Source: Candidatus Babelota bacterium
GTDB taxonomy: Bacteria; Babelota; Babeliae; Babelales; JAHIUU01
Length of the DNA stretch: 64,000 nt
Assembly: GCA_018817025.1 (NCBI GenBank)
Contig: JAHIUU010000006.1
Location: forward strand, 6,831 to 70,830
Reading direction: 5' to 3'
Shown: positions 1,664-61,897 of the stretch, piece after piece
Layout of the letters: every line of letters begins with the position of its first letter
Numbering within the stretch: the first letter of the stretch is position 1
The notes under the pieces: model-generated
What the model was told of the DNA's origin: nothing
Seen by the model: only the letters and a program-made list of their open reading frames with translations
Databases searched by the model: none
Program-made: the position numbers and the translations under genes

Positions 1664-2107
1664 TTACTTTGCAACGCTTACTTTTGCGTGCCGCAAAACC
1701 TGTCCTTGAAACAGGTACCCCTTAACCACAACCTCAACAATCTCTCCAGTCTCATGATCCTCAGACTCGACCTGAACCAACGCCTCATGCAGAGCAGGAT
1801 CGAACGTGCTCGAACAATCAATCTCCTCAACCCCCAAATCGCTAAACGTCTTTGCAACATTTTTGGAAACAAGCTCTAGACCGGCCAACACACTTGCACC
1901 ATCTACCGATTTCTGCTTTCGACAAGACTCCGTTGCCCGTTCAAGATCATCCATCACCATTAACAACGGTCGAATCACATCGCTTTTGGCCTGGGCAATC
2001 CAACTAGCCCGCTCCTTTTCAACCCGTCTTTTGTAATTCTGAAAATCTGCGCTCACGCGTGTGTACAAATCTTCATAGTCTATCTTAGACTTCTTTTTAA
2101 AAACCAT
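1664..2107 (-). CDS. grpE: Nucleotide exchange factor GrpE (short, 147 aa)
   Basis: Motifs DFQNYKRRVEKE and ...FDPALHEALVQVE...VVKGYLFQGQVLRHAKVSVAK are typical of GrpE. No dnaK or dnaJ is adjacent. Confidence 0.85.
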   Translation of the reverse strand: MVFKKKSKIDYEDLYTRVSADFQNYKRRVEKERASWIAQAKSDVIRPLLMVMDDLERATESCRKQKSVDGASVLAGLELVSKNVAKTFSDLGVEEIDCSSTFDPALHEALVQVESEDHETGEIVEVVVKGYLFQGQVLRHAKVSVAK

Positions 2108-2250
2108 ATGTTATACCCTTTCACCTAGCATTCTACCATAAAGAGTACATATTCCCAATTCACCCTCAGCGAACTCTTGAAATTGTAACTCTATTATTTA
2201 TAGCCTAAAATTGTAAATCTTATCAAAAATAAACTCTTAAGGGAGCACTC

Positions 2251-3597
2251 ATGAATTTTTTGCCTAAAAAGCGTCTCTTCTTACTCTTCTTACTCACCAA
2301 CACCTTCCGACTCTTCTCTATCGACAACTCACACTTTTACAAACCGCCATATTTTCATGCAACTAAATCATGGGAAACAAAAAACTGGCTTGCTGTTTTC
2401 GACGCGCACTACGCATATGGCAGCACCAATCATTCACGAGATAACAGGGGCCATCAAGCTGAAGCATTCGATCTGTATGGAAACCAAAACATACTGTATT
2501 TGACAGCCAACGTCCCTCGACCAACAAATCTTTCCGCTGCTCTGACCGGGTATATCGACGCACTCGAAACAACTAGAGCCGCATTTACTGCCGCTAACCC
2601 TGCCGATAAGCAGTTGTTTGGTCAGGTTGGCTTTTCAGGAAAATTCGATGTTAGCGAGTTTGTCCTCAATTATCGCCAGAATCTTATCTATAATTTTTTT
2701 ACGGAGCTTAACGTCCCCATCAGAACAATCAAGTCGGGACGGCGAACCCTGTGTGACAGAACACCAGTTGGCTCTGGCTCAGATCAAAATTATACACAAC
2801 AAGACGTCAGCTGGACCAATTTTAGAAACAACCTTCCCGATATTTTACGCGCATACGGCCTTGACCAATACACCCGTCGCTCAAAAAGCACCAATCTTGG
2901 CGACACAGCCCTTCTGCTTGGCCGGCAGGGACGCATCCCTTCTCTCGTTAATCTTTTTGAGTACTTCGACCTTGCAATCAAAGCAGGCATACTCGCGCCA
3001 ACAGGAACTAACAGAAAATACCAACAACCATTTTCAATCGAAACGGGATACAATGGACATTGGGGCTTTCCCGTCCGAGTGGACGCCATTTTTGGCTTAA
3101 GCAAAGACATGTACATCGGCACCTACCTTGGCTTGCTCTTCTTTTCATCAAGAACTCTCGACAGCTTTCCCGCTAGAACACACGAAAGCCAAAACGGCTT
3201 CATAAAGTTATACCGAACTACTATTCATGAAAAAAAAGGAACCATCTTTGATGTTGGCTCCTATCTGAAGTTGGACCATTTCATCAAAGGACTATCTATG
3301 TTACTTGGCTATTCATACAGCCATCAATCGAGAGATTCTGTCTCTATTCCAAAAGGATGCGACTATACACACACAAACAATGTAATTATCAACAATGACT
3401 GCCGGCTGAAAAATTGGCGCATGCACGTCATTCACGCGCTCGCTGAGTACGATTTTGGAGTTCACGACATTTGTAAAAAGCGTTTATGGCAACCTCGCAT
3501 CAGCATTTTCTACGATTATCCATTTAGTGGCAAAAGGGTTATGATGAGTTCATTGGTCGGGGGGGGAGTTGGGTGTGATGTTACGTGGGGATTCTAA
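2251..3597 (+). CDS. Hypothetical outer-membrane (beta-barrel-like) protein
   Basis: Has an N-terminal signal-like sequence (KKRLFLLFLLTNTFRLFS). It shows alternating aromatic/polar strands and a C-terminal ...GCDVTWGF ending in Phe, as in OM barrel proteins. A GGGAG RBS lies upstream. No family was recognised. Confidence 0.4.
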   Translation: MNFLPKKRLFLLFLLTNTFRLFSIDNSHFYKPPYFHATKSWETKNWLAVFDAHYAYGSTNHSRDNRGHQAEAFDLYGNQNILYLTANVPRPTNLSAALTGYIDALETTRAAFTAANPADKQLFGQVGFSGKFDVSEFVLNYRQNLIYNFFTELNVPIRTIKSGRRTLCDRTPVGSGSDQNYTQQDVSWTNFRNNLPDILRAYGLDQYTRRSKSTNLGDTALLLGRQGRIPSLVNLFEYFDLAIKAGILAPTGTNRKYQQPFSIETGYNGHWGFPVRVDAIFGLSKDMYIGTYLGLLFFSSRTLDSFPARTHESQNGFIKLYRTTIHEKKGTIFDVGSYLKLDHFIKGLSMLLGYSYSHQSRDSVSIPKGCDYTHTNNVIINNDCRLKNWRMHVIHALAEYDFGVHDICKKRLWQPRISIFYDYPFSGKRVMMSSLVGGGVGCDVTWGF

Positions 3598-5315: not shown

Positions 5316-5981
5316 ATGAGGCTTTTAAATTTTGACACTAAAGAGTGCTGGAACTATGAAAACGGTTTTTACTTGACGTCCGATATCAGACGAATAAGTA
5401 AGTTACTTGCCCACTATGAATTGTATAAAAAAATTGTGAATCTTCCAGGAGAGGTTCTTGAATTTGGGGTTTACAAGGGAAGCTCCCTAATTAGATTCTT
5501 AACGTTTCGCGAAATACTTGAAAGCCCGTACTCAAGAAAAGTGATCGGATTTGACGTCTTCGGAGAATTTCCAAAGTCGCAACATTTGGCAACAGATAAA
5601 AGCTTTGTGCAAAAATTTGAAACCGAAGGAGGAAACGGCATCCCAGAAAAAACACTTGAAAAAGCCCTGTTTAATAAAGAGTTTAAAAATTTTGAGTTGA
5701 TCAAAGGCGACATTCTGAAAACTCTTCCTAAGTATTTAAAAAAACATCCAGAACTAAAAATCTCCTTACTCCATATCGACGTTGATGTTTATGAGCCAAC
5801 CAAAATAGTACTGGAGCAATGTTATAATAAACTTGTTCCCGGAGGAATAATTGTATTTGATGATTATGGAACAGTACATGGCGAAACTAAAGCAATCGAC
5901 GAGTTCTTCTTAAACAAAGACGTTGAAATCCAAAAAAACCCTATCGCTCATATTCCAAGCTTCATATGTAAAAAACCGTAG
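5316..5981 (+). CDS. Class I SAM-dependent methyltransferase, TylF/macrocin-O-methyltransferase-like
   Basis: The SAM-binding loop is VLEFGVYKGSS. The motif LLHIDVDVYEPT...LVPGGIIVFDDYG is typical of the TylF/Methyltransf_24 group. Confidence 0.6.
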   Translation: MRLLNFDTKECWNYENGFYLTSDIRRISKLLAHYELYKKIVNLPGEVLEFGVYKGSSLIRFLTFREILESPYSRKVIGFDVFGEFPKSQHLATDKSFVQKFETEGGNGIPEKTLEKALFNKEFKNFELIKGDILKTLPKYLKKHPELKISLLHIDVDVYEPTKIVLEQCYNKLVPGGIIVFDDYGTVHGETKAIDEFFLNKDVEIQKNPIAHIPSFICKKP

Positions 5982-6000: not shown

Positions 6001-7383
6001 TTAGAACTCCACGTGGCCTGGATACCGAGGAAACGGGATCACATCCCGAATATTTTCCATGCCAGTCGCAAGCTGCACCAGTCTCTCGAATCCTAAACCA
6101 AATCCGGCGTGTGGTACTGAACCGTACTTACGCAACTCGAGATACCACCAGTAATCATCGAGACAAAGGCCTTGCCCCTCAATACGCTGCTTCAGAATAT
6201 CAAGGCGCTCTTCGCGCTGACTGCCACCTATCAACTCACCAACGCCGGCTACCAACATATCCATCGCAGCAACGGTCTTTCCATCATCGTTCAAGCGCAT
6301 ATAAAAAGATTTTATCTCTTTAGGATAGTCAACAACAAAAACTGGTGTTTTAAAGTGTTCCTCTGCCAAATAACGCTCATGCTCTGATTGCAAATCTTTG
6401 CCCCACACAACAGGAAACTCAAACGTTTTTCCAGATTTTTGCAAAATCTCAACCGCCTGCGTATACGTCACCCGTTCAAACGGGCTCTCAACAAGATGCT
6501 TTAATCGTCCAAGTAATCCCTCATCAATAAATTTATTAAAAAACTCAAGATCGTCCTGACAGTTTTCTAAAACATAAGAGATTATATATTTTACATATTT
6601 CTCTGCACAGTCCATATCATCGTTAATATCTGCAAATGCAAGCTCTGGCTCAATCATCCAAAACTCAGCTAGATGACGCGACGTGTTAGAATTCTCAGCT
6701 CGAAATGTTGGACCAAACGTGTAAATATCAGACATGGCACAGGCAAATGCCTCTCCTTCAAGCTGACCTGAAACAGTCAAGTAAGCACGCTTATCAAAAA
6801 AGTCTTGTGAATAATCTATTTCTCGATCTTTTTTAGGAACGTTATCAAAATCGAACGTTGTCACCTGAAACATCTGTCCCGCACCCTCGCAATCAGAACC
6901 TGTGACAATCGGGGTATTGATATAATAAAACCCCTCCTCGTTGAAAAATTTGTGTGTTGCAAAAGCAAGGGCGTTACGAACACGAGTCACGGCACCAATC
7001 GTATTGGTACGGGGTCGTAGATGAGCAATGGTTCGTAAAAATTCAAACGTGTGACGTTTTTTTTGCAGCGGATAGGTCTCAGAATCGCATGCACCGATAA
7101 GCTCAATCGATTGCGCCTTAAGCTCAAATGCTTGCCCTTTGCCAGGACTTTCAACGACCAACCCGTCAACAGAAACCGCAGCCCCTGTCGAAAGATTTGG
7201 GAGAACCTCTTCGTAACCTGCCGTATCATTATCAGCAACAACCTGTAACCCAGCCAAACAGGAACCGTCGTTAATAGTAATAAATGCAAATTGCCCCTGA
7301 TCTCGAACCGTTCTAATCCACCCCTTAATTGTAATCGCCTTACCAATATCTGCCTGAGAAATTTTATTTATTTTTACTCGCAT
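6001..7383 (-). CDS. asnS: Asparagine--tRNA ligase
   Basis: Class II motifs include FRAENSNTSRHLAEFWMIEPE and GFGLGFERL. The start was moved to the ATG at 7383 (MRVKINK...), which is preceded by GGAGAAAAA. The track start at 7437 adds 18 unlikely residues. Confidence 0.9.
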   Translation of the reverse strand: MRVKINKISQADIGKAITIKGWIRTVRDQGQFAFITINDGSCLAGLQVVADNDTAGYEEVLPNLSTGAAVSVDGLVVESPGKGQAFELKAQSIELIGACDSETYPLQKKRHTFEFLRTIAHLRPRTNTIGAVTRVRNALAFATHKFFNEEGFYYINTPIVTGSDCEGAGQMFQVTTFDFDNVPKKDREIDYSQDFFDKRAYLTVSGQLEGEAFACAMSDIYTFGPTFRAENSNTSRHLAEFWMIEPELAFADINDDMDCAEKYVKYIISYVLENCQDDLEFFNKFIDEGLLGRLKHLVESPFERVTYTQAVEILQKSGKTFEFPVVWGKDLQSEHERYLAEEHFKTPVFVVDYPKEIKSFYMRLNDDGKTVAAMDMLVAGVGELIGGSQREERLDILKQRIEGQGLCLDDYWWYLELRKYGSVPHAGFGLGFERLVQLATGMENIRDVIPFPRYPGHVEF

Positions 7384-8619: not shown

Positions 8620-8680
8620 AGCCCCCCCTCTTAAGAACTAGATCAGGTGGAGCCCCGAAGAGCTCCGCCTATATGTAAAA

Positions 8681-9151
8681 TTACAAACCAAAGTGTTTTT
8701 TAAGTTTCCCCTTGTACGTCTCTTTGTCCATCGCCCCAACATTTCGTTCAACTAACCTGCCGTCATTGAAAAATAAAAATGTTGGCACACCCTGAACCTC
8801 TTGCGACGAAGCCAAATCACGAGCTTGGTCAATGTTAATCACCAAAAAAGTCACGTCTGCATACTCTTTCGCTAGTTCTTCGTTAATTGGATGCATTCTC
8901 CTACATGGCGGACACCACGTTGCAGAAAAGTCTGCCACAACATTCTTTTTCGTCTTAATGTAACCGTCAAAATCTGACTTACTCGTAACATCTATGATCG
9001 TACCATTATGAGTTTCTATAACCTCAGTCTTGGTCCCGTTAGAATCATCCGCTTTTTCAGCTGATGAAAACCATGAGCAGCCTGGCACCACCGAAATCGC
9101 AAATACCATAACAAAAAACTTACCTGATCTTATCTTGCTCATATACTTCAT
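8681..9151 (-). CDS. Exported thioredoxin-fold protein (possible lipoprotein)
   Basis: The active site is WCPPCRRM in a thioredoxin-like context (...VVADFSATWCPPC...GVPTFLFF). The N-terminal signal ends in VVPGC, a weak lipobox. Confidence 0.75.
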   Translation of the reverse strand: MKYMSKIRSGKFFVMVFAISVVPGCSWFSSAEKADDSNGTKTEVIETHNGTIIDVTSKSDFDGYIKTKKNVVADFSATWCPPCRRMHPINEELAKEYADVTFLVINIDQARDLASSQEVQGVPTFLFFNDGRLVERNVGAMDKETYKGKLKKHFGL

Positions 9152-49334: not shown

Positions 49335-50438
49335 ATGAAGGTGGAACAATATCTCTTTTATCTTTTGTTTTTACTCGTTGGAACGCCAGCACTTCAAAGC
49401 GAAGTGAACCTTAACAATACTGGTGACCTCTTAGCCCAGTCGGCCGTCTCAATCTCGCAGCTCAATCTTCTCCACAACTCTCTTACTGAACTTAACCAGC
49501 AAGCGCCATCGCCAAAGATCGAGGGCGACATCGCTATGATCGAAGCAATTCTCGAGACAATCCAGGTGTCCATTCATGAACTCAACAGCGTAGAACAACT
49601 TGACCTACGACCAAACGACGAAAAAGACAACGAAGAAAACCAACAACCAACCCCTGAACAAATCGTTCAGGCAAACCAACAACAGATCATTGATAATCTT
49701 ATCAATGCAATCGAACAATCAAATGCAACCATTGAAAAATTAACGCGGCCAAACCGATGGAAAAATATAAAAATTGGTATATACCTAGTCTCCGGCACCG
49801 CTGCCGCTATAGGGGTAATCGTCCTTGGCTACCAGGCCTATAAAAAAATAAAATCGTTCTTCATGGCCCCAATCGAGGAGATGGACAAAGAGATCGAACA
49901 ACAAATAAAGGAAGTCTCCAAACTAGGCGACCAATTAACAGAAAACGTCGAAAACCTCAAAGACAATCTTCAACCTATAAAAAAAAGAACAAACGAAATA
50001 AAAAAAGCCGTTAAGGGAGGAATAAAAGTCCTCGATAATGTTCTTAAAAACGACTTTCCCAAACTCAAGGACGAAATTAACGAGAAAATTGCAACATTTC
50101 GAATTCTAGAAGAACTACGCAACATACGATTACGCGAAAAAGAAAAAATAGACGAGCTCGAACAAGAAATAAAGCGCCTGAAAAAACAAACTCAAACAAA
50201 TGATCAAGAACAAAACAAAAAAATCAGCGAACTAAAACAAAAAATGAAACGAGAAAGCTCTCACATGAAAGTTCACAGTCAACGATTGGATCTTTTGCTA
50301 GAAAACGATTTGATCTTAGCCAAGGAGCATTTTTCAAATAGACTTAAACTCTGCGAAGCCAGAGAAAAAATGGGGCTTAACAACTCGCCAATAGAACGAA
50401 CAGAAAATCAGCTAGAGAAGATTGTTGGTCCTAAATAG
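49335..50438 (+). CDS. Hypothetical signal-peptide / single-TM / coiled-coil protein
   Basis: G-rich RBS, signal peptide MKVEQYLFYLLFLLVGTPALQS and a central TM IGIYLVSGTAAAIGVIVLGY are present. The C-terminal half is a K/E-rich coiled coil. Its TAG stop is the first triplet of repeat copy A. Confidence 0.4.
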   Translation: MKVEQYLFYLLFLLVGTPALQSEVNLNNTGDLLAQSAVSISQLNLLHNSLTELNQQAPSPKIEGDIAMIEAILETIQVSIHELNSVEQLDLRPNDEKDNEENQQPTPEQIVQANQQQIIDNLINAIEQSNATIEKLTRPNRWKNIKIGIYLVSGTAAAIGVIVLGYQAYKKIKSFFMAPIEEMDKEIEQQIKEVSKLGDQLTENVENLKDNLQPIKKRTNEIKKAVKGGIKVLDNVLKNDFPKLKDEINEKIATFRILEELRNIRLREKEKIDELEQEIKRLKKQTQTNDQEQNKKISELKQKMKRESSHMKVHSQRLDLLLENDLILAKEHFSNRLKLCEAREKMGLNNSPIERTENQLEKIVGPK

Positions 50439-50470
50439 CCTAGGGCTTCCCGTCATGGGTTTTAAGGGCG
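50436..50470 (+). repeat. Repeat copy A (TAGCCTAGGGCTTCCC...GGTTTTA...)
   Basis: TAGCCTAGGGCTTCCCGTCATGGGTTTTAAGGGCG. The first 16 nt are identical to copy B, and about 28 of the first 34 positions match without gaps. It begins on the TAG stop of the preceding gene. Confidence 0.7.
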
Positions 50471-50502: not shown

Positions 50503-50534
50503 TTGTCCGCCTGCCCCGAGTGTCCTCCGTAGCT
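50503..50534 (+). repeat. GC-rich motif copy 1 (TTGTCC...TGCCCCGAGTGTCC...CGTAGCT)
   Basis: The 14-nt core TGCCCCGAGTGTCC at 50512-50525 recurs at 50629-50642. The flanks TTGTCC and CGTAGCT are also shared. GC content is visibly higher than in the surrounding sequence. Confidence 0.6.
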
Positions 50535-50612: not shown

Positions 50613-50652
50613 TTGTCCCGAGCCCGCTTGCCCCGAGTGTCCCCACGTAGCT
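50613..50652 (+). repeat. GC-rich motif copy 2
   Basis: TTGTCCCGAGCCCGCTTGCCCCGAGTGTCCCCACGTAGCT has the same core and flanks as copy 1 with an 8-nt insertion. One frame reads VCPEPACPECPH, compared with SLSACPECPP in copy 1. Confidence 0.6.
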
Positions 50653-50719: not shown

Positions 50720-50747
50720 TTGACATAAAACTTTCCCGTTTCATACT
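50720..50747 (+). promoter_or_regulatory. Candidate sigma70-type promoter of the toxin-like gene
   Basis: Perfect -35 TTGACA (50720-50725), a 16-nt spacer, then CATACT. It lies about 40 nt upstream of GGGAGG and the ATG at 50786. Confidence 0.4.
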
Positions 50748-50785
50748 AAGCCAAGTTTGTATGCTATTTTATGGGAGGTTTTGCC

Positions 50786-51415
50786 ATGAGAGAGCCTATC
50801 TTATATCAAAAGAACATTGTCACGGCCCGCTTGAAGCGGGCTCTTTTTTTTGTCCAAATAATTTTTCTATCTGGCACATGCTTCGCAAATTTTGATCGTT
50901 ACATGACCGCAATTACCCAAGCAAATTGGACCGGTTCTGTTCTTTGCACAAATAATTTGAGATCGTTTATGCGCGAAGGACACGAAACCCTGGGGAGCCC
51001 TGGTTGGGCACAAAGTCAATCCTGCCACACAAACTCCCATAAACAACATGAATTCAAAACCCCACAAAGCTTGCTGGTCAAAAACCATATCAACCCAAGT
51101 ATCTTTTTAGAGTTACAAAACGTTGCCTATCGCAATATGCCAACCGTCCTGAAAAACAAGTTGCCAAGCAAGCTCGTCGAAATGAAACAGTTGTTGCAGA
51201 AGTTTTTCGATAAATTCGATTCCTGCGAAGAATTCAGAAAACACGCTTCTCAGTTTTTACGGGGTTGGAATCTACAAATCGAAAAAAGTCGGCAAGAAAA
51301 AAGTGTTTGGTCATCGCAAAAAAATTCCCGCACTCAAGCACTATGCAGGCCATGCATTCAGAGCCGCCTGCGAAGCAATAAAAAATATAAAAATCTCTTT
51401 GACAACTCTCTGTAA
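50786..51415 (+). CDS. N-terminal fragment of a secreted toxin-like protein (frame 2)
   Basis: GGGAGG lies 7 nt before the ATG at 50786. The product starts MREPILYQKNIVTARLKRALFFVQIIFLSGTCFA (Sec-type signal). The reading is sensible up to ...FLRGWNLQIEKSRQEK, then turns to low-quality sequence where frame 3 becomes sensible. Confidence 0.45.
   Translation: MREPILYQKNIVTARLKRALFFVQIIFLSGTCFANFDRYMTAITQANWTGSVLCTNNLRSFMREGHETLGSPGWAQSQSCHTNSHKQHEFKTPQSLLVKNHINPSIFLELQNVAYRNMPTVLKNKLPSKLVEMKQLLQKFFDKFDSCEEFRKHASQFLRGWNLQIEKSRQEKSVWSSQKNSRTQALCRPCIQSRLRSNKKYKNLFDNSL
50825..50851 (+). terminator. Intrinsic-terminator-like hairpin inside the signal-peptide codons
   Basis: GCCCGC-TTGAA-GCGGGC followed by TC and T8. 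It lies 39 nt downstream of the ATG at 50786, inside the codons for ARLKRALFFV. Confidence 0.4.
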
Positions 51416-52172
51416 CAATCTTCTACAGACTGAGATTGGCGAACCAGCCCGGTATTTTCTCGGTCGATTTATGATGGGGCTCAGTGAATCTGGCATTGAT
51501 ATTCAAACTGTTCTAAAAAAAGAACTCATAGAAAACCGAAGCAACTTTGCCCCAGGATTTCTACAAAAAGTAAAATTTCAATCAGTCAAAGAACGCCTTG
51601 GAGACGTCATACAGCTTCTATCAAGGACAACCGTTCATGCGTCTGTCATCATAGTTTCAGTAGCAGCAACTGCAATAATAATAGAAGCCGGCGTCACAGC
51701 CGCCACGGGAACACTAGGCGCCATCGCCGCCAAAAATTTATTCGAACCACTCGCTCTCAGCATAAATCCAGATGGTACCGCAGCTATAGCGCAAGCGGCT
51801 TCATCAGGTGGTTCCGTATGGCAGGCAATCGCGACCTCAATTGGACAGGCAGCTCAAGCCGTTTATGGAGTTCTAGAACAAACAGGTAATTTCTTTGCAG
51901 CTATCGGTGATGGCAGACAAAAACCACCTTCCACGCCAATAGGAAGAAGGGGGCAACCACTGAATTGCTCTGGTTCCAATTCTGCAAAAATAATTAATGG
52001 TAGAGTCTTTACAGGTCACGCTCTTGATAGAATGCAGGGACGGGGCATAACGCCATCGATAGTTGAAAGCGTCATAAAAAATGGCGTGGCTCTTGCTGGC
52101 AAAACCCCTAGTACAACTGCTTATACATTTAAAAATGTTAAGGTTATTATTAATAATCAGGTGATGTTGTAA
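51303..52172 (+). CDS. C-terminal fragment of the toxin-like protein (frame 3) ending in an HAxDRMxxRGI module
   Basis: This frame is open from 51186. It overlaps the previous ORF across the A-rich tract 51281-51325. It has an Ala/Gly-rich hydrophobic segment (ASVIIVSVAATAIIIEAGVTAATGTLGAIAA). The C-terminus reads ...INGRVFTGHALDRMQGRGITPSIVESVIKNG...VKVIINNQ. Confidence 0.5.
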   Translation: MFGHRKKIPALKHYAGHAFRAACEAIKNIKISLTTLCNNLLQTEIGEPARYFLGRFMMGLSESGIDIQTVLKKELIENRSNFAPGFLQKVKFQSVKERLGDVIQLLSRTTVHASVIIVSVAATAIIIEAGVTAATGTLGAIAAKNLFEPLALSINPDGTAAIAQAASSGGSVWQAIATSIGQAAQAVYGVLEQTGNFFAAIGDGRQKPPSTPIGRRGQPLNCSGSNSAKIINGRVFTGHALDRMQGRGITPSIVESVIKNGVALAGKTPSTTAYTFKNVKVIINNQVML

Positions 52173-52199: not shown

Positions 52200-52484
52200 A
52201 TGAAAGAAAAAAACAAAGAGCACTTGAAAATGATGGTAAAGCAAATGGAAAAATATCAAACAGGTTCGGTAACATTAAAAACAATGCACGAAAATTTATT
52301 GGGGCTATACGAGTCAACTGACCTCCCGAACGAGGCAAAAGAATTCAGTAATCTTTTTCATCAATACTGGGACCAAATTGAAGAAATAATTGCAATCAAA
52401 AAAACAAAACAGTATTTAGAAGAAATTAATAACGTTATAATTCCTGGTTTTAAACAAAAAATTTTAGATTTGATAAAAGCCTAG
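52200..52484 (+). CDS. Small cytoplasmic helical protein, candidate immunity protein
   Basis: 94 aa with no signal peptide. It starts 27 nt after the toxin-like ORF on the same strand. Its TAG stop is the first triplet of repeat copy B. Confidence 0.4.
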   Translation: MKEKNKEHLKMMVKQMEKYQTGSVTLKTMHENLLGLYESTDLPNEAKEFSNLFHQYWDQIEEIIAIKKTKQYLEEINNVIIPGFKQKILDLIKA

Positions 52485-52812
52485 CCTAGGGCTTCCCTGC
52501 AGAGGTTTTAGCGGCAAAATCAATAGCGTGCCAGACAAAGCCTATGACGTTTTGAACATTATAAATGAAACAGGAGCAGCCCCCGACGGATTTAAAGGAG
52601 GAAGACAGTTCTTGAACAATGGGAGAGGGGATGGACAGGCGTTTGTCAAAATTGGACTTTCATGGTCCTCTCCAAGCATAAAAAATATAATTTCGACAAA
52701 CACCTCTTTTGGAAGATCAAACAATATCGGCTTACATAGAGACGGACACTTTTTTTGTTCTTGCATTGAATTCATGGAAAGCAAAAAAAGAACACCTCTC
52801 AATAACTATTAA
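52477..52812 (+). pseudogene. Start-less fragment with barnase/RNase-Sa-like N-terminal motif (orphan toxin module?)
   Basis: The frame is open from 52477 with no ATG (the track start is the GTG at 52528). It reads KPSLGLPCRGFSGKINSVPDKAYDVLNIINETGAAPDGFKGGRQFLNNGRGDGQ.... The x-TL-x-I-x-x-G-x-x-P-x-G-(F/Y)-x-GG-x-x-F-x-N pattern recalls microbial RNases of the barnase/Sa/T1 family. The distal half is poorly conserved, with no obvious catalytic Glu. Confidence 0.35.
52482..52516 (+). repeat. Repeat copy B (TAGCCTAGGGCTTCCC...GGTTTTA...)
   Basis: TAGCCTAGGGCTTCCCTGCAGAGGTTTTAGCGGCA. See copy A. The spacing from TAGCC to GGTTTTA is the same 22 nt. Confidence 0.7.
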
Positions 52813-52913: not shown

Positions 52914-54299
52914 ATGAACCAATGTACCTTTGTCATCCTGGGCGCAACCGGCGACCTGACAAAGCGCAAACTAATTCCAGCAATGTATCACCTCATAAAA
53001 AAGAACAAAATTAAAAACTTTGCGCTTGTCGGTGCCGCAATCACCGATACAACAATACAAGATGTCTTACAAAAATCTCAAAAGTTTATTCAAAAACCTG
53101 ACCGTAAAGTATGGAAACAGCTTGAACAATCATCATACTACTGCCAACTCGACTTTCATAACCAAAACGATTTTCAAAAACTACAAAAATTACTAATACG
53201 TGTTGAAAAAAAACATAAATTACCAGGGAATCGAATCTTCTATCTCGCAACGCTTCCAGAACACTTCGAAACAATTACCGCAAATCTCTCTAAAAACAAA
53301 ATCGTTCAAAAAGGCAAACAAACGCTCTGGTCTCGAGTCGTATACGAAAAACCATTCGGACACGACTTAAAATCTGCACGAAAAATTAATCGCTGTATCG
53401 CAAAACTATTCGATGAATCTCAGGTGTATCGAATCGACCACTTCCTATTGGAAGAACTCGTCACCAACATCGCCCTCGTTCGATTCTCTAATCTCTTTTT
53501 CGAGCCTCTCTGGAACAATAAATATATAGAATCTGTGCAGATAGTTTTGCATGAAAAAATTGGCATCGAAGGTCGGGGAGCTTTTTACGATCACTACGGC
53601 GCGCTCAAAGACGTTGTCCAAAACCACATGCTTCAGATGCTCGCTCTCATCGCCATGGAACCTCCTAAAAAACTTAGCGGCGAATATATCAGAGACGCAA
53701 AAGTCCGAGTATTAAAAAGAGTACAACACAACGACATTTTACTAGGACAATACAAAGAGTATCAAGACGAACGAGGCGTCAATCCAAAGTCTCGTACCGA
53801 AACTTTTACCGCACTTCGTCTAGAAATTGCAAACAGGCGATGGAAGGGCGTACCATTTTTTTTAAAAACCGGAAAATGCTTATCAAAAAAAGAAACCAGT
53901 ATTCACATAAAATTTAAAAACCCAACATGCCTACAACAAGACTGCCCCGCAGAAAGCAACTATCTCACGATTCAGATTCAACCGCGAGAAGGATTTTACC
54001 TGCAGGTCAACACAAAAATTCCTGGAGAAACGCATAATGTAACACCGGTCAAGATGGACTTTTGTCACGCCTGCCACTTTGGGCCGAACACCCCTCAAGC
54101 ATATGAAACTCTCCTCTCAGAGGTTCTTGAAGGTGACCACTCTGTTTTCGTTCGATTCGATGAGATCGAATATTCATGGAAACTAATCGATAAAATCTTG
54201 GCAAAAAAACACCCTATCTATACATACAAAAAAAATACTGATGGGCCAAAACAGTTAGCTATATTTAATAAAAAAAATAATATCAGGTGGCGAACATGA
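52914..54299 (+). CDS. zwf: Glucose-6-phosphate 1-dehydrogenase
   Basis: The N-terminal NADP motif is FVILGATGDLTKRKLIPA. The active-site region is YRIDHFL. Confidence 0.9.
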   Translation: MNQCTFVILGATGDLTKRKLIPAMYHLIKKNKIKNFALVGAAITDTTIQDVLQKSQKFIQKPDRKVWKQLEQSSYYCQLDFHNQNDFQKLQKLLIRVEKKHKLPGNRIFYLATLPEHFETITANLSKNKIVQKGKQTLWSRVVYEKPFGHDLKSARKINRCIAKLFDESQVYRIDHFLLEELVTNIALVRFSNLFFEPLWNNKYIESVQIVLHEKIGIEGRGAFYDHYGALKDVVQNHMLQMLALIAMEPPKKLSGEYIRDAKVRVLKRVQHNDILLGQYKEYQDERGVNPKSRTETFTALRLEIANRRWKGVPFFLKTGKCLSKKETSIHIKFKNPTCLQQDCPAESNYLTIQIQPREGFYLQVNTKIPGETHNVTPVKMDFCHACHFGPNTPQAYETLLSEVLEGDHSVFVRFDEIEYSWKLIDKILAKKHPIYTYKKNTDGPKQLAIFNKKNNIRWRT

Positions 54300-55207
54300 G
54301 TATTCACAAAAAAAAATATATAGGGTTAGTTGGTCTTGGACGTATGGGACTCGCGATCGCCCATCGATTAATACAAGCAAACTTCACGGTACTAGGGTTT
54401 GACCAAGACAAACAAGCCCGAGAAAAGCTTGAACTGTTGGGCGGTGCCCCCGTCGACGCCATAACAGAGATCCCAAACAAGTGTGACATAATGTGGCTCA
54501 TGGTGCCTGCAGGAAAAGTAATCGATAGCGTTATTGCTCAAATAAAATCCAATGTAAAAGAATCTAGCATTATTATCGATGGGGGTAACAGTCACTTCCA
54601 AGATACCATCAGACGGTCACAAGAACTTGCTAAAGACAACATCTTCTTACTTGATTGCGGAACATCTGGGGGGCTGCGTGGTAGCGATATAGGGTTCTCC
54701 CTTATGATCGGCGGCGACCATAACTCATATAAAAAAGCAGAACCAATTTTCAAAGCTATCGCAGCACCGAACGGCTACGCCTACCTAGGGCCATCTGGCG
54801 CCGGCCATTACGTTAAAACAGTTCACAACGGCGTCGAATATGTAATTCTGCAATCGTACGCTGATGGATTTAATTTGCTCAAACATGGACAATATAAAGA
54901 TCTTGATTTACATAAGATCTCTAAAGTCTGGAATAATGGATCAGTTATTAGATCATGGATCTGCGAGCTACTCGAAGAAATTTTCGCACAAGACCAAAGT
55001 TTTACCGATATTTCTGGCTTTATAGACGAAAACCTTACCGGACAATGGACTATCGAAGAAGCGAACAAACAAAACATATCCATGAAACTCTTGGAAATTT
55101 CGCTCGAAATCAGGGCGCAATCGAGACAAACCGGGGGCGATTATGCAACAAAAATCGTCGCATTACTTCGAAATAAATTTGGCGGTCACGAGGTGAAAAA
55201 AACATGA
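54296..55207 (+). CDS. gnd: 6-phosphogluconate dehydrogenase, short (~300 aa) decarboxylating form
   Basis: Rossmann motif IGLVGLGRMG is present, followed by ...DGGNSHFQDT...DCGTSGG...HYVKTVHNGVEY. The ATG at 54296 overlaps the zwf stop (ATGA). The track start at 54287 is GTG. Confidence 0.8.
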   Translation: MSIHKKKYIGLVGLGRMGLAIAHRLIQANFTVLGFDQDKQAREKLELLGGAPVDAITEIPNKCDIMWLMVPAGKVIDSVIAQIKSNVKESSIIIDGGNSHFQDTIRRSQELAKDNIFLLDCGTSGGLRGSDIGFSLMIGGDHNSYKKAEPIFKAIAAPNGYAYLGPSGAGHYVKTVHNGVEYVILQSYADGFNLLKHGQYKDLDLHKISKVWNNGSVIRSWICELLEEIFAQDQSFTDISGFIDENLTGQWTIEEANKQNISMKLLEISLEIRAQSRQTGGDYATKIVALLRNKFGGHEVKKT

Positions 55208-55824
55208 AAATTATCGATATCAGTTGGCCAATATCTAACGAAATGACAACCTACAAAGACGGAGACGATATCTCTATCGAAAAAATCCAGTCGTTCAAAA
55301 CAAACAGCGTTCGCGAGCACAGGCTATCTATTAGCTCTCATATCGGCACCCATATCGACGCCCCAGCGCACTTTCTACAAGACGGAGCAACGCTCGACCA
55401 AATAGCTCTTGAAACGTTGGTCGGCCCCTGTCGTGTTCTCGATTTCACAAATATAAAAGAACAAATAACAGAAGAAGCCTTGATACCTCACACCATCAAA
55501 ACAAACGACCGAATCTTGCTCAAAACAAAAAATAGTCTTTTATCTTCAACAGATTCTTTCAACTATAGCTTTGTCTATCTCGATGAAACCGGCGCACATT
55601 ATCTTGCCAAACAAAAAGTACGATGTGTTGGAATCGATTATCTTGGTATCGAGCGCTGCCAACCTAATCATAAAAGTCATATCGCACTTCTCTCAAAAAA
55701 AATACCTATTATTGAAGGACTAAGACTCGAGCAGGTAGAACCGGGAAATTACCAACTCTATTGTCTCCCGCTTCTTATACCAGGCCTAGAGGGCTGTCCA
55801 GCACGAGCGGTGCTTATATCTTAA
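55204..55824 (+). CDS. Putative-cyclase / arylformamidase (KynB-like) family metal hydrolase
   Basis: HIGTHIDAPAHF (the HxGTHxDxPxH metal motif) and a C-terminal ...GLEGCPARAVLI are present. The ATG overlaps the gnd stop (ATGA). The 3' end overlaps the aspS 3' end by 11 nt. Confidence 0.75.
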   Translation: MKIIDISWPISNEMTTYKDGDDISIEKIQSFKTNSVREHRLSISSHIGTHIDAPAHFLQDGATLDQIALETLVGPCRVLDFTNIKEQITEEALIPHTIKTNDRILLKTKNSLLSSTDSFNYSFVYLDETGAHYLAKQKVRCVGIDYLGIERCQPNHKSHIALLSKKIPIIEGLRLEQVEPGNYQLYCLPLLIPGLEGCPARAVLIS

Positions 55825-61727: not shown

Positions 61728-61832
61728 AGAGCAAAAATTATTGGTTCTTTTGACATTTCGCTTTAGGGCTCATCGCCTTTGGCTCTTCGGCCACGCTTTC
61801 CGGTTAAGCCGTCGGCCCGTTCCGGGACTCAA
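61728..61832. other. GC-rich structured intergenic element closed by a 12-bp long-range stem
   Basis: 61728-61739 (TTATTGGTTCTT) pairs with 61821-61832 (AAGAACCAGTAG), 10 Watson-Crick plus 2 G.U pairs. The stem encloses about 80 nt of unusually GC-rich sequence with local hairpins (TGGCT-CTTC-GGCCA). The strand is undetermined. Confidence 0.3.
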
Positions 61833-61897
61833 GAACCAGTAGCGGATTTGATGAAATATCAAAAAACATAAACTCCAAACCTTATCAGGAGAAACGT

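Follow-up and report, generated by a model that had tools for sequence, protein, structure and literature searches.

Short interspersed repeats located at the ends of genes form a familiar class of sequence. Repetitive extragenic palindromes (REP) and bacterial interspersed mosaic elements (BIME), enterobacterial repetitive intergenic consensus (ERIC) sequences and BOX elements are short (15-40 nt) and have a higher GC content than the genome; they occur in multiple copies in intergenic DNA, are often located after genes and are arranged in mosaic clusters. Here we describe a 34-nt repeat that resembles them in all these respects, with mosaic clusters around two of its copies (A and C); this comparison draws on general knowledge of these elements and has no database match behind it, and the family itself matches nothing in Rfam or in the collections that we searched. 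The repeat was found in a 64,000-nt stretch (hereafter the window) of contig JAHIUU010000006.1 of a Candidatus Babelota bacterium. It is an undescribed short interspersed repeat of the uncultured, host-dependent phylum Dependentiae/TM6, whose members have been reported to live inside protists and whose genome dynamics are poorly known. The reading that we favour, with about even confidence, is that the 34-nt sequence is a copy of a small non-coding dispersed repeat, two copies of which (A and B) bracket a toxin-immunity module, and that copy B is the product of a local rearrangement.

The 16-mer TAGCCTAGGGCTTCCC occurs exactly at positions 50436 and 52482 of the window only, both times on the + strand, which agrees with the 16/16 identity reported by a first-pass annotation of the same DNA. 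No further match was found in the window on either strand with up to three mismatches. Copies A and B share 28/34 nt in an ungapped alignment, with conserved blocks separated by a variable 6 nt. The edges of this similarity are sharp: 0/10 positions match just upstream, followed by 10/10, 8/10 and 7/10, and then by background levels (at most 3/10 from 30 nt downstream). Gapped alignment of 880 nt around each copy revealed no similarity beyond the 34-nt repeat, confirming that the resemblance ends after about 35 nt, and the flanks of copy B resembled no other copy, its repeat-like part consisting of the 34 nt only. The multi-copy status of the repeat, its positions, its sharp edges and the identity of the flanking genes are established, and it carries no coding or RNA-structure signal.

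As the first-pass annotation had pointed out, copies A and B both start on the TAG stop codon of an unrelated upstream ORF (Table 1). This holds for these two copies and not for a third one described below. TAG is the rarest stop codon among the long ORFs of the window (7/45). Furthermore, the first 8 nt of the element contain stops in two of the three frames, as TAG is found at position 1 in A and B and at position 6 in all copies. A second in-frame stop follows 9 codons past the leading TAG in both copies, after PRASRHGF and PRASLQRF, respectively. Stop-codon readthrough was considered and rejected, since A and B lack a signature of synonymous changes and the second stop is missing from copy C.

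An additional 17.5 kb of the same contig was fetched beyond the window ends, bringing the DNA scanned to 81.5 kb. It contains copy C (TCGCCTAGGGCTTCCC) at L080 5376-5391, 2.4 kb left of window position 1, in which the core GCCTAGGGCTTCCC is exact (L080 5378-5391) and TCG stands where A and B carry TAG. The A/B pair alone would be marginal, because simulations of the window with an order-3 Markov model reached an ungapped score of at least 22, as high as that of A and B, in 14.5% of cases (3% within 2.1 kb), and because the window holds a second, unrelated pair of exact 16-mers (positions 1440 and 57943). These two observations are what speaks for a chance similarity. Against it, the chance expectation of a third exact 14-nt core in the 17.5 kb of flanking contig is about 4e-5, A and B match at 12/18 positions beyond the 16-mer (binomial P = 3e-4), and both lie exactly at ORF ends. 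Therefore, the third exact core shows the repeat to be a real multi-copy sequence of this genome, and chance, refuted by this copy, retains next to no probability. The first-pass annotation had named, as what would refute it, a motif found nowhere else and explained by a local duplication including its flanks; a third core does exist on the same contig.

Copy C is located between two minus-strand genes coding for a 248-aa secreted protein and an MIP aquaporin-family channel, with no toxin nearby. It lies past the terminator hairpin of the MIP gene, opposite in strand to the two neighbours, and its RLGLP-stop reading falls in non-coding DNA. Copies are thus not always found at gene 3' ends or at toxin-domain boundaries, as copy C is at neither. 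Right of the core, copy C shares only 3/18 positions with A and 6/18 with B, compared to 12/18 between A and B, indicating that A and B are each other's closest relatives. The GGTTTTA part of the repeat is not conserved in copy C.

A weaker relative had been suspected at 61752-61815. Direct comparison of this segment with copy A was not significant; the segment is linked to the family by way of copy C, as a module of about 70 nt located 40 nt downstream of copy C (L080 5430-5496) is 77% identical to window positions 61764-61833 (BLAST E = 0.002, with profile hits too). We refer to this diverged relative as D. The two copies of the 70-nt module occupy intergenic regions 64 kb apart, one of them directly upstream of a leucine-rich repeat (LRR) protein gene; the module had no Rfam match, and its consensus fold was not convincing on either strand. 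Upstream of the core, modules ATTGTTGGTCCTAA in A, ATTGTGGACCTAA in C and AAAATTATTGGTTCT in D show a weak resemblance (p ~0.04 per pair). In the spacer leading from copy A to the toxin promoter, the GC-rich units R1 and R2 form a direct repeat (TTGTCC..GCYTGCCCCGAGTGTCC..CGTAGCT), one frame of which reads ACPECP twice with two synonymous differences. The possibility that these ACPECP motifs represent a decayed zinc ribbon was dismissed, the best Pfam match having an E-value of 0.17.

Altogether, the 81.5 kb contain at least three exact cores and one diverged relative, all four on the same strand. Judging from their sequences, A-D appear to belong to a mosaic family of small GC-rich intergenic repeats, in which the cluster around A is complete and B stands alone as a 34-nt piece, with (T)TCGCC/TAGCC-TAGGGCTTCCC as the apparent consensus of the core. 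A different 26-nt dispersed intergenic repeat, TGGCGGGGCTTAGTTGACGCGTTTCG, was observed on L071, a related contig from the same metagenome, at positions 5709-5734, 7199-7224 and 8672-8697, where it flanks an LRR gene and an AAA-ATPase gene. This repeat suggests that small interspersed repeats are common in these genomes.

Beyond the contig, a scan of species-representative genomes for CCTAGGGCTTCCC-N6-GGTTTT returned no match, and scans of metagenomes for TAGCCTAGGGCTTCCC-N6-GG and of viral sequences for the 16-mer returned six and two matches, respectively; the source genome is absent from all of these sets. The eight matches were rejected as family members, as their surroundings are unrelated, mostly high-GC or phage-coding, and they are attributed to chance. 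The motif was also absent from proteins P0003-P0012 and from the homologues of the RNase tip described below. A by-eye link to AAGCCCTAGCAGCCTGAGGTTT in the 5' untranslated region (UTR) of related toxins was abandoned, as it was unsupported by profile search and the underlying alignment was poor.

Table 1. Coordinates of the repeat copies and surrounding features in the window.
Feature	Position	Strand	Remarks
367-aa ORF	49335..50438	+	Coiled-coil/transmembrane; KKA53_02030 hypothetical protein (NCBI); terminated by the TAG of copy A
Upstream module ATTGTTGGTCCTAA of copy A	50421..50434	+	Within the last codons of the 367-aa ORF
Repeat copy A	50436..50469	+	Core GCCTAGGGCTTCCC at 50438-50451; leading TAG is the stop of ORF 49335-50438
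GC-rich unit R1 (TTGTCC..GCCTGCCCCGAGTGTCC..CGTAGCT)	50503..50534	+	Intergenic cluster of copy A
GC-rich unit R2	50613..50652	+	Partner of R1, starting 110 nt downstream; shared 14-mers 117 nt apart
Sigma-70-type promoter, TTGACA-16-CATACT	50720..50747	+	Best promoter-like site of the region; kept upstream of toxin paralogues on related contigs
Polymorphic-toxin gene, frameshift-split	50786..52172	+	ORFs 50771-51415 and 51303-52172; break at a T5/G4 run near 51245-51258
94-aa ORF (84 aa as called from 52230)	52200..52484	+	Putative immunity gene, judged by position only; terminated by the TAG of copy B
Repeat copy B	52482..52515	+	28/34 identical to A; leading TAG closes ORF 52200-52484
Truncated barnase-type RNase toxin domain, N-terminal half	52522..52653	+	Orphan remnant starting a few codons after copy B
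Diverged relative D	61734..61833	+	Core-like CTTTAGGGCTCATC at 61761-61774; module of ~70 nt at 61764-61833

Copies A and B are direct repeats bracketing a self-contained 2,046-bp module that comprises a conserved promoter, a frameshifted toxin gene and, behind it, a small ORF that is the putative immunity gene. Under the dispersed-repeat reading, the early stops of the element would usually close an ORF abutting or reading into it, and two unrelated ORFs would therefore end on it. At copy A, the weak upstream similarity hints that the element may also have contributed the final few codons of the 367-aa ORF. Copy B is a 34-nt A-like fragment in direct orientation, 2,046 nt away and exactly at the joint between the module and the RNase remnant, and for this reason it is best interpreted as a local partial copy of A, made by a rearrangement that placed or reshaped the module. 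Either an insertion or a duplication with subsequent deletion through short homology could account for such a rearrangement, and the direct copies A and B would then be its joints rather than a functional signal.

Several observations weigh against this interpretation. Similarities outside the core are weak (p 0.04-0.08), and all copies are known from 81.5 kb of one genome. The strand shared by the four copies could also be explained by an orientation-dependent function. Inverted repeats, target duplications and a transposase, which would support mobility, were not found in the 81.5 kb. Likewise, no empty site or pre-rearrangement allele was found, look-ups of the exact zwf and 367-aa proteins leading back to the same locus only. 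Finally, even if the repeat is dispersed, the fact that both ORFs stop on its very first triplet is a coincidence of about 1 in 9.

Within the bracketed module, the gene split by the frameshift is recognizable through intact homologues of 400-500 aa (P0003-P0007) that align across both halves. In these homologues, an N-terminal region of about 330 residues that ends in GVVEQxGNLFCA is conserved and includes a hydrophobic segment; the C-terminal tips behind it are unrelated and include Colicin D (PF11429). The tip of the window gene is DUF4258-like (STPIGRRG...GHALDRMQGRGI; Pfam E = 1e-4, below the cut-off) and recurs on unrelated N-terminal regions in P0009-P0012. From these alignments, the window gene and its homologues are predicted to be polymorphic toxins of one family, between whose members the tips (Colicin D, DUF4258-like and others) have been swapped. 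The frameshift may reflect a true pseudogene or a homopolymer error; the split gene call is identical in the Logan and ENA assemblies. Related contigs (L069-L073) each carry two to three toxin paralogues followed by immunity genes and HEPN/MNT pairs. The 94-aa ORF does not resemble the WapI immunity protein that belongs to a related toxin tip. We also observed a terminator-like hairpin with a T-run, GGCCCGCTTGAAGCGGGCT-CTTTTTTTT, within the 5' part of the toxin coding sequence (50824-50852). It is kept at the DNA level in paralogues of related contigs (L073 685-709 and 5499-5523), where a T-to-C change converts a G-U pair to a G-C pair, and it may act as a transcriptional attenuator of toxin expression.

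Downstream of copy B, the RNase-like fragment noticed in the first-pass annotation was corroborated. The open frame 52480-52812 (110 aa) had no Pfam or PDB match by itself; an exhaustive HMMER search with the frame following copy B returned 34 proteins, about 30 of which match residues 10-60 at 40-59% identity. PF00545 (Ribonuclease) is carried at the matching place, covering residues ~15-58, by eight of the ten homologues scanned. The homology starts at VPDKAY and, at the DNA level, at position 52528, 12 nt past the repeat; it stops after NNGRGDGQ, half-way through the domain, indicating that this orphan remnant is truncated at both its 5' and 3' ends. One intact relative is followed by a barstar gene, and no barstar is present here. 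Another homologue, P0017, is truncated after NDGR like the window fragment; its contig (L077) is a mirror-image palindrome, genes 3-734/736-1101 being repeated inverted at 2012-3110, which is probably an assembly artefact.

The 81.5 kb otherwise consist of housekeeping DNA (SecA, BamA, ATP synthase, topoisomerase I, SufC, zwf-gnd, AspRS, GroEL), in which Pfam revealed no transposase, integrase or recombinase domain. The window belongs to a contig of roughly 322 kb that is present in the ENA, JGI and Logan assemblies. No homologue of the 367-aa protein was found. The nearest relatives of the zwf gene belong to Babeliales (57% amino-acid identity). The zwf-gnd-cyclase block (52914-55824) is syntenic in Babeliales, unlike everything upstream of zwf. 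As synteny is kept only from zwf onward, the toxin locus lies at a synteny breakpoint, a comparison that is too distant for dating an insertion.

Other explanations were weighed against the dispersed repeat. The first-pass annotation had proposed that the repeat encodes a conserved peptide junction, SLGLPxxGFxG, serving as a recombination handle for swapping toxin tips. The peptide itself was confirmed, as the +1 frame reads NSLGLPVMGFKGG and PSLGLPCRGFSGK at the two copies, and copy B lies a few codons before the truncated RNase domain in the same open frame. However, stops close this frame just upstream of both copies, and the codons that differ between A and B are non-synonymous throughout, in every frame. 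Furthermore, the family's own boundary between conserved and variable parts is GVVEQxGNLFCA, no toxin ORF includes copy A, which precedes the conserved promoter by 284 nt, and the RNase homologues lack the SLGLP linker, their homology beginning only at VPDKAY. With copy C in non-coding DNA, this proposal is largely refuted and has very little probability left. The same annotation had alternatively suggested an element acting at the RNA or DNA level. The DNA-level repeat agrees better with the data, given the four copies described above, and a terminator or processing site was unsupported. An RNA-level 3'-UTR element beginning at the stop codon (terminator, processing or stability site, or binding site for a small RNA or a protein) would account for both window copies starting at the stops of co-oriented ORFs, for the single strand used by all copies and for a short hairpin followed by UUUU that can be drawn by eye in each window copy. 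Yet the folds of A and B are no more stable than those of shuffled sequences (z -0.05 to -0.87) and differ from each other, a terminator scan detected no terminator-like site at copy A or B, and only tRNAs passed the Rfam thresholds in the window, with no overlap with the repeats up to E 10. Copy C, being on the strand opposite to its neighbours and past the MIP terminator hairpin, does not lie in a sense 3' UTR, and the GGTTTTA is not conserved there. We therefore regard an RNA element as improbable. Slightly more doubtful still is the idea that the 14-nt core, around the palindrome CCTAGG, serves as the binding site of a regulator, a nucleoid protein or another protein that binds DNA. The core is kept exactly while its flanks drift, which fits such a site, but the whole core is not a dyad, distances to promoters are inconsistent, two of the three sites are at gene 3' ends, and neither a candidate regulator nor conservation in related genomes was found.

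Alternatively, a site-specific or short-homology (Campbell-type) integration could have used the 16-nt identity as its crossover core; the module would then be a non-autonomous cassette, with A and B as attL-like and attR-like joints. In favour of this, the direct repeats exactly bracket the self-contained module, which interrupts housekeeping DNA, and they consist of an identical 16-nt block with 67% similar right arms and unrelated left arms. Moreover, a large serine recombinase is encoded 2 kb from a homologous toxin module on L071/L072 (L071 4247-5425). Nevertheless, the 81.5 kb hold no recombinase, copy C has no partner and lies at a distance from toxin genes, five related toxin loci lack the motif, no empty site was observed, and the flanks of copy A resemble a dispersed element rather than a cassette arm. 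Integration thus appears unlikely. A broader version, in which the core is the attachment or crossover site of an undescribed non-autonomous Dependentiae cassette system whose toxin-immunity and perhaps other accessory modules would end exactly on the in-site stop and be inserted, excised or shuffled in trans, is a long shot; its function would be akin to that of integron cassettes and pdif modules, with an unrelated site.

Membership in described classes of elements was also assessed. A miniature inverted-repeat transposable element was rejected, as terminal inverted repeats and a target-site duplication are missing, and no inverted copy of the core was found with up to three mismatches in the window or up to two in the 81.5 kb. 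Integron attC was set aside because the repeat has no GTTRRRY core and no visible dyad arms, and no integrase is encoded in the 81.5 kb. Xer dif/pdif sites did not fit, as the arms are not mutual inverted repeats and the right block is not conserved in copy C. For a REP/BIME palindrome, only a 5/7 Watson-Crick stem (GGWCCTA/TAGGGCT) can be drawn in A and C, and none in B or D. No Rfam covariance model matched at the repeats. A pre-tip junction was discarded too, as the motif is not in frame within a full-length toxin ORF and is not conserved in homologues with other tips.

The context of the repeat is more useful than the repeat itself: it holds a family of polymorphic toxins whose tips (Colicin D, DUF4258-like, RNase) have been exchanged, together with orphan remnants, and a literature search combining 'Dependentiae' and 'polymorphic toxin' found no paper on this phylum. 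Should modules move at these repeats, which we think improbable, they would represent a new cassette mechanism.

Compared with REP, ERIC and BOX elements, the repeat has no clear imperfect palindrome, occurs in one orientation only and is known from three to four copies, and no transposase of the REP-associated tyrosine transposase (RAYT) type was seen in the 81.5 kb. Integron attC sites and Acinetobacter pdif sites also bracket small modules with short repeats at or near a stop, and they too combine conserved blocks with a variable 6 nt between them; here, inverted arms, the GTTRRRY core and a nearby integrase or recombinase are missing, and a solitary copy is found elsewhere. The contact-dependent inhibition (CDI) cdiA-CT/cdiI loci and Rhs orphans provide another parallel, as a toxin-immunity pair is followed by a 5'-truncated tip without delivery domain and a short repeat marks the 5' edge of the orphan. 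In those systems, the repeat is a conserved coding piece upstream of the tip (VENN or PxxxxDPxGL), whereas here it lies outside the toxin coding sequence and the orphan RNase is unlinked to GVVEQxGNLFCA. Finally, the Rickettsia palindromic elements and the Neisseria Correia elements are much longer, and their terminal inverted repeats, TA duplication or in-frame insertion in conserved proteins are not demonstrable here. Like the Dependentiae repeat, they overlap the 3' ends of ORFs, apparently supply stop codons and have an intracellular bacterium as host. The repeat described here illustrates how such elements can set gene ends and mark the joints of rearrangements.

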